Positions 16,750 through 31,611 of a stretch of 64,000 nucleotides of DNA are shown here, piece after piece. The stretch is taken from positions 1 to 64,000 of IMG/VR virus record IMGVR_UViG_3300042291_001568; one strand, 5' to 3'. A model generated the notes under the pieces. That model searched no databases. It was given only the letters and a program-made list of their open reading frames with translations, and was not told the DNA's origin. The DNA is from a virus. A program made the position numbers and the translations under genes. Numbering within the stretch: the first letter of the stretch is position 1; each line of letters opens with the position of its first letter.

Positions 16750-17526
16750 ATGAGAGCGCGGCCTAACGACCACGACCGTCTGATTGAAGAAGCGCGCACG
16801 CACCTTGGGTACAAACCAAGACCGGGCGGAATTTCTTTCTATGCGGAAAAGGTAGGGTACGCAAGTCACGGGTCGCCCTGGGACGGTGCGTTCATAGACG
16901 TAGTTGCACGGGATGCAAATTGCGTTATCCCATCTTGCACTTCAACATCTTCCGGCCTGGCTGAGTTCATCTACAGTGGACGGTGGCGAAAAACGCCTCG
17001 GCCTGGTGACATTGTCTTCTATTCTTTCTCAACGGGTGGTCCATGGACTCAACCTCACGTCGGAATAGTCACAGGCGTGGACCGTTGGAAAATTGATGGT
17101 ACGTTCATTGCGCTCGAGGCGATGGTGGATTCCGGCCTGCCCCAGGGCTCAAAAGAGATGACGGGTGTGTTTGAGCGAGTTCGTTGGAAGAACGAGGTTC
17201 TTGGATTTTGTAGGCCAAATTTCAAACTCAGGCCTGAGCTAGGAAAAAATAATATGACGGGTGCCAAAAACACCTTGAAGCTTTCGCACCTAAAGCCGAG
17301 GAAGAAACACGAAAGTGTCAAGGTTCTTCAGCAGGCTCTGAAGATTACCTCAGGATTGGTTTATTACGAGGCAGGCCACTACGACAACATGACCCAAAAC
17401 GCGTTCGCCCGTTGGCAACGCCAAATCGGGTACGTCGGCGAAGATGCCAACGGAATCCCAAATCACTCCTCACTTTCCCGATTAGGGAGCCAGACAGGGC
17501 TATTTCAGATCGCATCTGAAAACTAG
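16750..17526 (+). CDS. CHAP/NlpC-P60-like protein with C-terminal peptidoglycan-binding domain (endolysin-like)
   Basis: LIEEARTHLGY, PWDGAF, PGDIVFY, HVGIV; C-terminal VKVLQQAL...YDNMTQNAFARWQ (PG_binding_1-like). Confidence 0.75.
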   Translation: MRARPNDHDRLIEEARTHLGYKPRPGGISFYAEKVGYASHGSPWDGAFIDVVARDANCVIPSCTSTSSGLAEFIYSGRWRKTPRPGDIVFYSFSTGGPWTQPHVGIVTGVDRWKIDGTFIALEAMVDSGLPQGSKEMTGVFERVRWKNEVLGFCRPNFKLRPELGKNNMTGAKNTLKLSHLKPRKKHESVKVLQQALKITSGLVYYEAGHYDNMTQNAFARWQRQIGYVGEDANGIPNHSSLSRLGSQTGLFQIASEN

Positions 17527-17546
17527 GGAATATATAATAAAACCAG

Positions 17547-17960
17547 ATGAACAAGCGCCTAACTGACGAATGCGACAGCTGCGGCTCAGACATCCGTATC
17601 ATACCAGCGCCAGGGCTGAGCACTGACCCAGAGCAGACTATGTCTGGCTATCGCCAGGTTGAAAACGGCTGGTGTCTAAATCTGTCTGGCGGCTACGCTG
17701 AGTTTACTGACGACTGCTTTGTAGAAAACAGTCCACTGCTGTACGTTGTGCTGTGTCACGACTGCTGCTTAAAAATCGCAAGGATGCTTCCTAATCTATT
17801 TCCGCCGGGAACTGGCACGCACCCTCCGCATACTGAAAATAATTCCGATGCGTCGTGCTGTGAGTTTAACTGGTCTATAGACTCGCATGGCTGCACAGTC
17901 GTCGGCGACGGCAAAGGCGGCTGGGTTGAACGCATTGCGCCATCAGGAGAAGTAATCTAG
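17547..17960 (+). CDS. Cys-rich hypothetical protein
   Basis: First cassette gene; CDSC, CHDCC and CC motifs; stop lies in the next promoter copy. Confidence 0.7.
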   Translation: MNKRLTDECDSCGSDIRIIPAPGLSTDPEQTMSGYRQVENGWCLNLSGGYAEFTDDCFVENSPLLYVVLCHDCCLKIARMLPNLFPPGTGTHPPHTENNSDASCCEFNWSIDSHGCTVVGDGKGGWVERIAPSGEVI

Positions 17961-18045
17961 GGAAAATATAATTACCCTAAATCATAACGCAGGGTAAAGT
18001 CCTGTGTTATAATGACAGTATCCACAACGACATAGGAGACAGAAA

Positions 18046-18630
18046 ATGAAAACCATTCCAGTCCAGTTACAACCGTTTATTGAAGCACGACGTGCTCGTG
18101 GAAAAACCACGCGCGACATTGTTCAGTTCATCGTAGATGCTACGGACGTTCCGCTCACTGCGCTTGAAGTAACAAATCTCGCAGCACAACTCAACGAACG
18201 AGTCTACGACTACAACTACATCACGAAGATTCTTCGAGAGCTTATTGTTGACGGGCTTGCAATTAGCCGAATTGAAACCGATCAAGAGCGAAGCACTAGA
18301 TCTTACGGGCGTCTTGTGAAAGGTCACAACGCGACCTTATTCATTGGAACGTCAACGGGCCGCACGACAGTGCCGACACGCACGGTCGGTATTGCTGTCC
18401 CAGGCGTGGAGCTAGGCCAGAAGGTTGACGGGATCACCTACAGGTACAAGCACAAGACGAAAGCTGGAAAAAAGAAACGGGCTTCAACTCGTGTTCTGGT
18501 TTCCGGCCTGCCTAGCAAAACCACAGCGATGACGGGTGACGTTGCCGATCTTCTCGAGCAGCTGATTGCTGCACGAACAGCGAAGCTTCAATCGAAGCTT
18601 GATCGCATCACACGCATACTCGCCGAGTAA
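18046..18630 (+). CDS. putative winged-helix DNA-binding protein
   Basis: PLTALEV...YITKILRELIVDGL is wHTH-like; basic C-terminal half; AGGAG RBS. Confidence 0.55.
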   Translation: MKTIPVQLQPFIEARRARGKTTRDIVQFIVDATDVPLTALEVTNLAAQLNERVYDYNYITKILRELIVDGLAISRIETDQERSTRSYGRLVKGHNATLFIGTSTGRTTVPTRTVGIAVPGVELGQKVDGITYRYKHKTKAGKKKRASTRVLVSGLPSKTTAMTGDVADLLEQLIAARTAKLQSKLDRITRILAE

Positions 18631-18723
18631 AAAGTTCCGGCCTGAGCTGGGCTTCCCCGTGTATGACGGGCAGGCCTGAGCTCGGATTGTATTTCATTAA
18701 CGGGCACGTGTTATCGTGTACGA

Positions 18724-18981
18724 GTGATGTACAATTACGCGATGTACGTAGTCGAAGATCTAGAGCATTGCTTCATATCTGCGAATAAGGGTATCTACGA
18801 TTTTGTCATTGACGACGAAGAATGCAAGAACTGTGGAATGGTTGTTGGCCCGTATGGCGACTCGTTCTTCCCATGCGTAATTCTCGTAGGTCAAGACGAA
18901 GGAGAGTCATGGCCGATCTGCGTTGAATGCGCCGCGCCATTGCTGTACCCACGAGAATGGATCGATGAACTAGACGTGTAG
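18724..18981 (+). CDS. zinc-finger-like protein
   Basis: CKNC and CVEC motifs; start uncertain. Confidence 0.6.
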   Translation: MMYNYAMYVVEDLEHCFISANKGIYDFVIDDEECKNCGMVVGPYGDSFFPCVILVGQDEGESWPICVECAAPLLYPREWIDELDV

Positions 18982-19149
18982 CCAGATAATTAGTACTATG
19001 CCCGTAGTACTAATTATTCTAAGGATGATACTATTTGCTTCATCGGGATCGCCAATATCTGACTTAGCCCCACCTGGTGGGAAAACTAAGGATGGTATAA
19101 TGATCTCATACCCAAGCAATCCTGCCTGGGAGCGACGAAAGGACAAATA

Positions 19150-19404
19150 ATGGAACAGCGCAAATGGTGTCTCCTCAAGGGGAGCGACGTTGGCCCGATG
19201 GGCCGTGGCCAAGCTGGCAAGAAGAAAGTATACGAGATCATCGTCTCGGACAACGTTCTTCGTTGCGAGTGGGGCATGGCTGAAAAGACCCAGCGTCAAT
19301 CAAGCACTCGGGTGTTCACATCACACCAGTCAGCACGTGCCGCAGCCTACGAGAAGTTGTGGGCGAAGCAGGACCGCGGCTACACCGTGGCCTACGCTGT
19401 CTAA
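19150..19404 (+). CDS. standalone WGR-domain protein (paralog 1)
   Basis: KKVYE...CEWG...Q...A...K...K..RGY WGR pattern; promoter and RBS present. Confidence 0.8.
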   Translation: MEQRKWCLLKGSDVGPMGRGQAGKKKVYEIIVSDNVLRCEWGMAEKTQRQSSTRVFTSHQSARAAAYEKLWAKQDRGYTVAYAV

Positions 19405-30159: not shown

Positions 30160-30214
30160 CTATCAATCTAAGGATTGTATAATAACTACATCAACCTAAA
30201 CTAAAGGACACACA

Positions 30215-30481
30215 ATGAAGACACGACCAACACAGCCAGGCCGCGATGGCGGACTTGTAGTAAGGACATCAATCGGCGGCTACTGCCTGCGGATCGAAGA
30301 TGGGGTTGTTGTAATCCAGATTGACGAGAAAGATCTCATCGATGCGATGCACAACAATGGCTACTCATACGGCAAGACAAACGTTGACCACCTGCCAACA
30401 ATTCGTGAAGGCGAGTACCGACTCGAGATTGCGTGTCACGCAGTCAAGGTCGTGGATGACGCAACTCGTCTCACAAACTAA
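30215..30481 (+). CDS. hypothetical protein
   Basis: Cassette promoter and RBS; stop inside the next motif. Confidence 0.75.
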   Translation: MKTRPTQPGRDGGLVVRTSIGGYCLRIEDGVVVIQIDEKDLIDAMHNNGYSYGKTNVDHLPTIREGEYRLEIACHAVKVVDDATRLTN

Positions 30482-30523
30482 GGATTGTATAATGATACTA
30501 TCAACCAATACAAAGGACAAACA

Positions 30524-30751
30524 ATGACAATCATCGATACGCCGCAAGGAATAGATCACTTCAGAATAGCAGCCACCATAGCGGCTCTCAGAGTTGAAGT
30601 CGCAACTGGAATGAAGATGCACAGAGGAGTCTCAGCATTGCGAATGGCTCAGATGTACGGCTGCCCTAAGAATACGAAGAAGGCAGCACTTCCGTGGATG
30701 GAAGCGTTCTACGAAGAAACTTACGGCTGGGCCTACGGGTCCAAGCCGTAA
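30524..30751 (+). CDS. hypothetical phage protein
   Basis: Cassette promoter and RBS; ALRVEVATGMKMHRG. Confidence 0.8.
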   Translation: MTIIDTPQGIDHFRIAATIAALRVEVATGMKMHRGVSALRMAQMYGCPKNTKKAALPWMEAFYEETYGWAYGSKP

Positions 30752-30809
30752 GGCATCTGCCGGTAGAAACTCTGGAAGATATAATAGTCTACATACCAAA
30801 GGACACACA

Positions 30810-31070
30810 ATGACAACAGCAACGACAAACCAATATGTTTACGACGTACCGAGCAGACCTAATCACGGTAAGCACGATCAAATTCTTACAGTCGGAGAAC
30901 TCATAGGCATTCTTTCGCAGTGCGACGAAGACGATCAAGTGCTCATCGGAGCGCAGTGTGTGAATGCGGAGTGGCTCAATGTGTGCCAAGTCATTCAACC
31001 GAACGAAGAAGATGGCATTTGCGCGCTTACACTGATGGCCGTTGACACATTTGACCCGAGGCAATTCTAA
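30810..31070 (+). CDS. hypothetical protein
   Basis: Cassette promoter and RBS; LTVGELIGILSQCD. Confidence 0.75.
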   Translation: MTTATTNQYVYDVPSRPNHGKHDQILTVGELIGILSQCDEDDQVLIGAQCVNAEWLNVCQVIQPNEEDGICALTLMAVDTFDPRQF

Positions 31071-31447
31071 TGTTTGTCCCTGCAAGCGAGCCACAGTTCT
31101 GGCTTGAGGTAACCGAGCAGGGTATGTGGGCACGGATGGATCGAAGTGAAGACCGATGGAAACAGATTGCGGTCAAGAATGCGCAACAGTTCCGTGTCAC
31201 GGACACGGTAACAATGTGGTGGCACGATGACCCTGCGCCACCGGCGTCATACAATCACATGGCAATAGCGATTGTACGGGCATGCGGATATGACGGGCTC
31301 GAGATACGTGGACACGTGGTCTTCACCGGCCTGTTAGGCTTCTCTGACGGGCAGCAAACTTTGTCTCTTGAAGATGAAGCATTGCTCTGCGCGTACGCCA
31401 ATCATTGCAAGACTGAGATTGCAGTAGTCTCGCGCATGAATAAATAG
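31070..31447 (+). CDS. hypothetical protein
   Basis: TAATG coupling to the upstream gene. Confidence 0.65.
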   Translation: MFVPASEPQFWLEVTEQGMWARMDRSEDRWKQIAVKNAQQFRVTDTVTMWWHDDPAPPASYNHMAIAIVRACGYDGLEIRGHVVFTGLLGFSDGQQTLSLEDEALLCAYANHCKTEIAVVSRMNK

Positions 31448-31611
31448 TTCCGGCCTGTGGCTAGGCCACATTTGATTGACGGGTCACTCAAATTGTGTTC
31501 CGGCCTGTCTAAGGACACGCCTTTGATGACGGGCATGGTTTTCAGGCCCGGCCTGTGGCTGGCACTTGAACTGATGACGGGCATCAGATCTAGGGATTGT
31601 ATAATGTACCT

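Follow-up and report, generated by a model that had tools for sequence, protein, structure and literature searches.

Co-oriented arrays of a 34-bp two-box DNA motif, in genes and before early promoters, in a clade of lake actinophages

Introduction

Which protein reads the arrays of an asymmetric two-box motif that recur over 15 kb of an actinophage genome, and what would such a protein accomplish there? We addressed this question in the first 64 kb (64,000 nucleotides; hereafter the window, whose coordinates are used throughout) of the 116,822-bp IMG/VR virus record IMGVR_UViG_3300042291_001568. A preliminary description of this stretch had reported the motif CCGGCCTG-N19-TGACGGG in tandem intergenic clusters and inside two genes, one CHAP-like and the other encoding a winged helix-turn-helix (wHTH) protein. 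It had proposed a DNA site read by a protein on a fixed helical geometry, such as an operator or stoperator, an alternative-sigma promoter or a recombination site, with the wHTH protein as a candidate binder. Here we report that the motif is kept in related phages, that its in-gene copies bear the marks of selection at the DNA level, and that several arrays stand at a nearly constant distance from early promoters. The arrays are probably double-stranded DNA sites to which a phage protein binds head-to-tail. Our preferred explanation, which we hold tentatively, is that they are sites of a phage DNA-binding protein acting as operator and roadblock, in a stoperator-like fashion.

Results

A genome-wide search with the pattern CCGGCCTG-N17-21-TGACGGG, for which the expectation was taken from 100 dinucleotide-preserving shuffles, revealed eight exact matches in the window, all on the + strand (0.00 expected), and every one of them had a spacer of 19 nt, although the pattern allowed 17 to 21. 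The half-boxes were also in excess, with CCGGCCTG found 10 times against 1.15 expected and TGACGGG 15 times against 5.0 expected. No further full motif occurred elsewhere in the whole 116,822-bp record, and single boxes were nearly confined to its 16.9-31.6 kb region. The coordinates of the eight copies in the preliminary description were correct, as was their + strand, and sequence reading together with a weight-matrix scan showed that the variants listed there at 18671 and 17229, as well as the degenerate ones near 18399 and 26449, are real. At least six degenerate copies accompany the eight exact ones, and we could add copies at 16952 (N18, gGACGGt) and 31326 (a short N11 form), as well as lone right half-sites at 18249, 26366 and 31290. 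Alignment of the copies gave the consensus (T/A)(T/A)CCGGCCTG, usually followed by (A/T)GCT(A/G)GGnC, then by an A/T-rich stretch and by (G)A TGACGGG C A, the left part constituting a weak dyad, GGCCT-N5-AGGnC. An AGG or GGG had been noted as frequent at spacer positions 5-7; it stood there in five of the eight exact copies and within 1 nt of there in seven.

The copies, all on the + strand, formed three clusters. Cluster 1 (16.95-18.70 kb) extended over the endolysin gene with its CHAP and peptidoglycan-binding (PG-binding) domains (16741-17526, + strand), the wHTH gene (18046-18630, + strand) and the 111-nt gap behind the latter (18631-18741). Within the endolysin gene, a degenerate copy, CCGGCCTG-N18-gGACGGt, encoded SGLAEF..GRW (16952-16984), an exact copy in the inter-domain linker encoded SGLPQGSKEMTG (17132-17165), and a variant in the linker, cAGGCCTG-N18-TGACGGG, was read in a different frame as RPELG..MTG (17229-17261). 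The wHTH gene carried a lone right box, TGACGGG (18249-18255), followed by a degenerate copy in its linker (18399-18432) and an exact copy in the disordered linker (SGLPSKTTAMTG; 18503-18536). In the gap behind it, an exact copy began 6 nt past the stop codon (18637-18670) and was directly abutted by the variant cAGGCCTG-N19-TaACGGG (18671-18704), with the TACAAT -10 element of gene 18742 located 25 nt on. Cluster 2 (26.45-26.64 kb) filled the 238-nt gap at 26458-26695, beginning with a degenerate copy, CCGGCaTG-N18-aGACGGG (26449-26481), that overlapped the stop codon of gene 26173-26457 and continuing with exact copies at 26546-26579 and 26608-26641. Cluster 3 (31.29-31.58 kb) combined a short-spacer variant, CCGGCCTG-N11-TGACGGG (31326-31351), in the 3' end of gene 31070-31447 with three exact copies in the 164-nt gap at 31448-31611, the first in the TTGACGGG form 2 nt past the stop codon (31450-31483) and the others at 31500-31533 and 31548-31581. 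The intergenic arrays thus started at the stop codon of the upstream gene or 2-6 nt past it, and the distances from copy to copy (34, 48, 50, 62, 97 and 134 bp) were unphased. The earlier picture of tandem intergenic clusters, with further copies inside the CHAP-like and wHTH genes, therefore stood, but the cassette region has other sizeable gaps too.

The in-gene copies encoded SGL..MTG with the codons TCC, CTG and ACG (all three in the copy at 17132), and with CGG elsewhere. In this genome these codons are the rarest or near-rarest (codon shares of 5%, 9%, 16% and 7%, respectively), and the arithmetic chance of such codons, given the peptide, was about 3e-4 per site. The boxes also fell in differing frames, as GGC CTG in some places and AGG CCT GAG in others. 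Comparison of the endolysin gene with L145, a metagenome fragment of about 90% identity, showed that 7.4% of positions differed overall, whereas no difference was found among the 57 positions around copy 16952 (16936-16992) and only two among the 183 positions spanning copies 17132-17229 (17124-17306; the remainder of the gene differed at about 9%; binomial P = 3.5e-6), each of them at a spacer position. Because of the rare codons, the different frames and these islands of near-zero divergence, we conclude that selection acts on the DNA motif, the peptide being a by-product. An explanation at the level of the peptide (SGLP..TG) was ruled out by the non-coding intergenic copies, the multiple frames and the use of the rarest codons; only 6 of the 58 wHTH family members kept this peptide. 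As a separate observation, copy 17229 contains an in-frame ATG at 17254, after AGGAAAAAATAAT, where the PG-binding domain of the endolysin begins. This ATG may be an internal translation start for a free cell-wall-binding domain, and it was not conserved in the other lineages.

No close DNA relative of the phage was found in the GenBank phage collection. A search with its VWA protein led to Actinomycetia phage DSL-LC01, a metagenome-assembled lake phage, and ten further loci were collected through the VWA alignment. An exact-pattern scan of IMG/VR returned mostly single chance matches in high-GC contigs, along with four contigs of about 50% GC (G001-G004) that carried tandem motif pairs 50 bp apart. 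Beyond the study phage, at least five lineages of uncultured lake actinophages carried the motif at syntenic places, with lineage-specific box details: CCCGGCCTGCCATAGG..(A/T)TGACGGGCA in G001-G004, (C/A)GGCCTRGTA..GACGGTGGCT in L144 and L135, CAGGCCTG..GACGGGC in L136-138, and CCCGGCCYG..TGAC(G/C)GT(G/C)AG in DSL-LC01. Conservation in related phages, on which the preliminary description had made its reading depend, was thus observed, the motif being kept while its boxes drifted; in the most distant lineage, L141-143, the motif was not found. Between close relatives and across lineages alike, the boxes were conserved and the spacers free. All copies in six lineages lay on the gene (coding) strand, as illustrated by DSL-LC01 (six forward and none reverse, plus a 5-copy array) and by the L144 locus (GACGGT 16 times forward and never reverse).

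The early cassettes were heavily reordered between lineages, and nonetheless two associations of the motif persisted. One was with the endolysin gene, which carried both boxes repeatedly on the + strand in every lineage and is the oldest platform of the motif. In L139 this gene contained dense chains of GACGGCCTG with a period of about 33 bp (+ versus - strand: GGCCTG, 11 versus 2; GACGG, 11 versus 0), and in L136 GACGG was found 12 times versus 0. The linker of the wHTH gene bore copies in the study phage, DSL-LC01 and L144. The other association was with a small acidic gene (M..HYFAxDGNYG; in the window at 26696-26893, + strand, beginning MTKHYFAADGSYG..), which was preceded by one to five copies in the study phage, L144, DSL-LC01 and L136; in L136 the motif stayed before this gene although the gene's usual upstream neighbour lies 4.5 kb off. 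Two local structures were observed in these relatives. Directly behind the endolysin stop codon of L139 (3464-3540 of that locus) lies a 56-bp tandem pair, GG(C/T)CTAACTTCCGTGTAGACA, whose only common feature with the motif is the GGCCTA start. In L126 (G002), at 1585-1625, a motif pair is followed by a strong hairpin with a 9-bp stem (GCTAGCGCG..GCGCGCTAGC) and no promoter.

The standard early promoter of the phage (..AGATCTAGGGATTGTATAAT) has no -35 element and occurs in about 40-60 copies, about 40 of which we located. Clusters 2 and 3 both ended flush against a copy of it, the distance from GACGGG of the final motif to TATAAT (26660-26665 and 31600-31605, the latter in the promoter of gene 31612) being 18 nt in each. 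In four lineages, the final copy before the HYFAxDGNYG gene was flush against the lineage's own version of the standard promoter, 17-18 nt from the -10 element, and in five cases the distance from the right box, GAC(G/C)G(G/T), to the -10 element was 18, 18, 17, 17 and 17 nt. Across the six lineages, five copies ended promoter-flush and others lay inside genes, with the uniform orientation relative to transcription that characterizes stoperators. The standard promoter always stood between the motif and the gene it precedes. That the motif is independent of this promoter, as had been proposed, was confirmed by a weight-matrix test in which the spacers of 13 copies scored as background (P = 0.22), so the spacer was rejected as a decayed standard promoter. 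Other features of the region concern promoters as well. The -10 elements TACAAT (18730) and TATAAT (31600) are followed by an ATG only about 6 nt on, which suggests leaderless messages for genes 18742 and 31612, and each of these genes encodes a small Cys-rich protein of zinc-ribbon type. At the switch from leftward to rightward genes, a 370-bp A/T-rich region free of open reading frames (ORFs) and of motif copies (13700-14070) is a candidate control or origin region.

The 194-aa product of gene 18046-18630 (gp18046) has about 88 cluster-level relatives, all of 170-240 aa. An AlphaFold model built on a 58-sequence alignment (predicted local distance difference test score [pLDDT], 88) assigned residues 1-101 to a winged helix and about 125-160 to a basic, disordered linker, and ended in a long helix that forms a coiled-coil tail; the disordered linker is exactly the part encoded by the motif copies. 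A Foldseek search with this model retrieved PadR/MarR-type regulators and, more weakly, the winged helices of Orc1/Cdc6 (E about 0.01). Pfam, PHROGs, NCBIfam and ESM Atlas provided no name for the protein. Residues R75, E77, T78, E81, R82, R85 and R112 were invariant or nearly so, with Arg, Glu and Thr in the wing. Among GenBank phage records, the protein was found only in DSL-LC01, which itself bears the motif. The wHTH protein is still a plausible binder, as the preliminary description had suggested, given the confident winged helix and a linker encoded by motif copies, and we regard it as the best candidate; a second candidate, encoded at 15655-16593, had been missed. Upstream of the wHTH gene, the stretch 17945-18030 contains two tandem promoter-like -10 regions with a 7-bp inverted repeat, TTACCCT..AGGGTAA, between them, and is nearly identical in L145.

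The second candidate, gp15655, is a 312-aa zinc-ribbon protein (15655-16593, + strand) with a small-terminase-like (TerS-like) core (..VRLKASTEILDRAG..), encoded just upstream of cluster 1 and two genes upstream of gp18046. Its zinc-ribbon corresponds to DUF5763, and the protein was 76-79% identical in the four nearest lineages and 63-65% identical in L139 and L143, with more than 2000 relatives in the databases. A profile of its C-terminal half (20 sequences) matched best the structures 7joq (E = 0.0019) and 6w7t (E = 0.15), both solved small terminases, through the common core RLKAAxDILDRAG. This TerS similarity covers about 50 residues and is joined by one curated annotation; the AlphaFold2 model (pLDDT, 39) was uninformative. 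The large terminase subunit (TerL) of the phage is encoded at 45323-46753, 28 kb from the gp15655 gene. A full-length homologue (33-39% identity) is gene 1 of the cultured Microbacterium phages Cece, Big4, Pumpernickel, Zooman and A3Wally. The Cece copy, which carries the annotation terminase small subunit, begins 62 nt from the physical left end and falls within an 18,079-bp direct terminal repeat (DTR); the endolysin follows a few genes downstream, as gene 7. Because the homologue is gene 1 at the physical left end of Cece, the sequence suggests that a physical end of the study phage may lie just upstream of 15655; its contig has no end repeats.

The first 4.4 kb of Cece (OP068343.1) contained [GC]AACCG 24 times on the + strand versus 4 times on the - strand (shuffle mean, 3.5; maximum, 12). 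These words occurred in all three frames and in the TerS and endolysin genes, and two TTGACA-N17-TAAGCT promoters (about 3440 and 3885) carried them in their spacers as well. A strand-specific word painted over the TerS-endolysin stretch is thus common to Cece and the study phage, with a different motif in Cece. No similar motif cluster was present at the right DTR boundary of Cece, and its helix-turn-helix protein, gene 45, was not homologous to the wHTH protein. Some further elements were observed around the TerS-like gene. Just upstream of it (15591-15633), a 9-bp inverted repeat, GGGGATCCG..CGGATCCCC, encloses GCCCTCTCCCC; a similar element, CCCTCT(C/G)CC, precedes the homologue in L136 and L138 and in Cece lies about 100 bp inside the right terminal-repeat boundary. 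Upstream of the gene there is also a 74-aa ORF rich in Lys, Ala and Pro (15344-15568; KKTPAKKTAPAKKAAPAKKAAP..) that resembles histone H1 or the tails of actinobacterial HU proteins and adjoins a holin-like ORF (15112-15300).

Discussion

The proposal of the preliminary description, that a protein reads this DNA at a fixed geometry, fits all of the computed evidence, including the conserved boxes, the free spacers and the selection at the DNA level. From the sequence, we infer a 34-bp composite asymmetric site, made up of a weak dyad, GGCCT-N5-AGGnC, within (T)TCCGGCCTG, an A/T-rich stretch and the right box, (A/T)TGACGGGCA, which a phage-encoded sequence-specific protein would bind. The native DNA is predicted to contain modified cytosine. 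The wHTH-coiled-coil protein of gene 18046-18630 is the best candidate for this role. The oldest and densest array is the one inside the coding sequences of the endolysin and the wHTH protein, supplemented by satellite arrays that start at a stop codon or within about 17 nt of one and mostly end flush against -35-less early promoters. The bound protein would form a nucleoprotein array controlling transcription, in which promoter-flush copies, at about -31 to -64, could serve as an operator or upstream activator site. In-gene copies, in the manner of mycobacteriophage stoperators, could act as an orientation-dependent roadblock to read-through from lysis-type genes (the holin-like ORF 15112-15300 and the endolysin) into the early cassettes. 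The copies that abut at 34 bp and the chains of about 33 bp suit cooperative protein binding and not independent promoters. Transcriptional control is favoured because of the promoter link in four lineages, the constant 17-18 nt and the co-orientation with transcription. Among the options originally listed, the operator or stoperator was the best fit, the copies being co-oriented, some of them promoter-flush and others in transcribed genes.

The stoperators and operator of cluster A mycobacteriophages, bound by the immunity repressor of these temperate phages (gp71 in L5), are 13-bp asymmetric sites of which about 30 are dispersed genome-wide. The motif resembles them in its asymmetry, in its single orientation relative to transcription, in its location at promoters as well as in and between genes, and in its drift in sequence between related phages. 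Unlike them, it joins two boxes and a weak middle box into a 34-bp composite, and it occurs in tandem arrays, in three clusters over 15 kb, in a phage without an integrase or other temperate hallmarks.

Several observations weigh against a stoperator-like role with the wHTH protein as its reader. Two promoter-proximal copies stand 24-25 nt from the -10 element instead of 17-18 nt, and the G002 array has a hairpin downstream and no promoter. The flush position against the next promoter may be mere compaction of a tightly packed genome, and since all lineages inherit cluster 1, the uniform orientation amounts to only about two independent observations. Lineages with the same box cores have wHTH proteins of only 32-42% identity, and the conservation of gp15655 matches that of the motif better. 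The Cece parallel, at a known genome end, would in turn point to a function linked to the terminus or to packaging.

The latter observations lead to a different reading, which we consider unlikely but deserving of serious weight: the arrays would be pac- or cosB-like sites for packaging or terminus recognition by the small-terminase-like protein encoded at 15655-16593, with cluster 1 as the packaging-initiation region and the other clusters secondary or near a terminal-repeat boundary. The pac and cosB sites of known phages (P22, SPP1 and the R-sites of lambda; PMC9611059) are likewise asymmetric, multi-copy and located in or beside coding DNA at or near terS. The profile matches to 7joq and 6w7t provide a candidate reader with a TerS-like core, its homologue opens the genome at the physical end of the cultured relatives, inside the direct terminal repeat, and the strand-biased [GC]AACCG of Cece covers the TerS and endolysin genes there. 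Packaging would also explain better why the oldest cluster lies beside the TerS-like gene, and the conservation of gp15655 runs parallel to that of the box cores. However, the TerS assignment is weak, the similarity being short, and TerL lies 28 kb off. Nor would a pac site be expected to have clusters 8 and 14 kb downstream that stand flush against early promoters, or a conserved association with a single small gene in four lineages. The right DTR boundary of Cece lacks a cluster, and although contigs of relatives start upstream of the terS-like gene, the distances vary. Packaging and transcriptional control are not mutually exclusive. It is conceivable, albeit improbable, that a small terminase of an unusual kind, a 312-aa zinc-ribbon protein whose gene stands 28 kb from that of TerL, reads the arrays and, once accumulated, occupies the early-promoter-flush copies, coupling packaging to early-gene shut-off or activation, and that Cece-like relatives share this logic with a different motif.

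Other readings appear less probable still. Iterons located inside the initiator gene are known from lambda O (ori) and SPP1 G38P (oriL), with auxiliary sites such as SPP1 oriR and P4 crr. By analogy, the wHTH protein would be an initiator whose own gene holds the sites, in the region that codes for the linker, with the clusters at 26.5 and 31.5 kb as auxiliary sites. The direct, same-orientation repeats in and next to the wHTH gene, precisely in the disordered linker, with further clusters elsewhere, recall these systems, and a copy number varying from one to five at a syntenic site and the weak Orc1/Cdc6 matches would agree with such a role. Yet the genome contained no match to Phage_rep_O or Rep_3, no marked A/T-rich unwinding region was found beside cluster 1 (the lowest GC, 0.36, being at promoters), the 34-bp composite unit exceeds the 17-22 bp of iterons, the spacing is unphased, and the old cluster lies mostly in the endolysin gene and not in the wHTH gene, which together make this reading highly unlikely. 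Equally unlikely is a second class of promoter, with the left box as -35 and GATGAC(GGG) as -10, 23 nt from start to start, that a host alternative sigma or a phage factor would use to give a few early genes a different timing. The constant distance between two unlike boxes and their invariable co-orientation with the genes would suit a promoter, and by our own count the distance fits the geometry of the sigma-70 family if GATGAC is the -10; tandem promoters are common in phage early regions. Against it, conservation is lacking where the key -11 A would fall, copies adjoin each other at 34 bp or form chains of about 33 bp inside a gene, up to five are stacked 44-50 bp apart, and the standard promoter always intervenes before the gene. 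No match to Sigma70_r2, Sigma70_r4_2 or a T7-type RNA polymerase was found in the genome at E <= 1, a limit that a very divergent factor could escape. A scan of a genome collection for a host regulon yielded only chance matches or the AGLYxWWPKMTG-coding sequence of a conserved high-GC actinobacterial gene. The alternative-sigma promoter named in the preliminary description is thus disfavoured by the missing sigma or RNA polymerase gene, the abutting copies and the intervening promoter. A box at a fixed distance upstream of a good -10 without a -35 does recall PafBC-dependent and T4 MotA-box promoters, but the motif is a 34-bp composite with upstream repeats, and most copies have no -10 downstream. 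The right box, TGACGG, is superficially like the -26 element of PafBC, tGTCgg-N10-tANNNT with its invariant GTC (PMC8635444); having GAC in place of GTC and N20 in place of N10, it was rejected as a PafBC box for its wrong core and wrong spacing.

An element acting on sense transcripts, either a hairpin plus GAUGACGGGCA box (nut-like) or sites for an RNA-binding regulator, with an effect on antitermination, processing or translation, is the least probable of the readings considered. All copies lie on the sense strand, the left dyad by our reading tolerates G-U pairs in several copies, and the central AAGGA(C) resembles the ribosome-binding site of the phage, with an ATG or TTG 10-11 nt later in all eight exact copies. 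This start-codon feature, however, does not extend to DSL-LC01, where CTG or GTG takes its place; the same ground, together with array periods that are not multiples of 3, led us to reject mini-ORFs or starts of translation at the right-box ATG. The predicted folds vary by copy with mostly non-significant z-scores, the conserved 191-nt island is no more stably folded than shuffled sequence (z = +0.42), no Rfam match was obtained at E <= 5, the invariance of the left half precludes a demonstration of covariation, and the last copies stand upstream of the next gene's promoter. The recombination site that had also been listed is unsupported: no integrase was found, and an integron-attC-like site was rejected for that reason and because the motif does not occur once per cassette. 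A partition site was rejected since no ParB was found. A tandem-pattern scan of viral contigs returned only chance matches and one perfect 30-bp repeat (L344) that is unrelated to the motif.

The clade of lake actinophages that bears the motif is abundant, the TerS-like protein alone having more than 2000 relatives in the databases, and because no motif-bearing member found here is cultured, its regulatory logic is to be read from sequence alone. The motif is a second cis-code beyond the standard promoter, and it is so old that it became embedded in two genes despite codon preference. Identification of its reader would open a first way into the temporal control, or the packaging specificity, of this group, and would yield a protein-DNA pair, compact and orientation-dependent, for use in actinobacterial genetics. 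Were the packaging reading true, the motif would also show where the genomes of an uncultured phage group end and where their terminal repeat lies.

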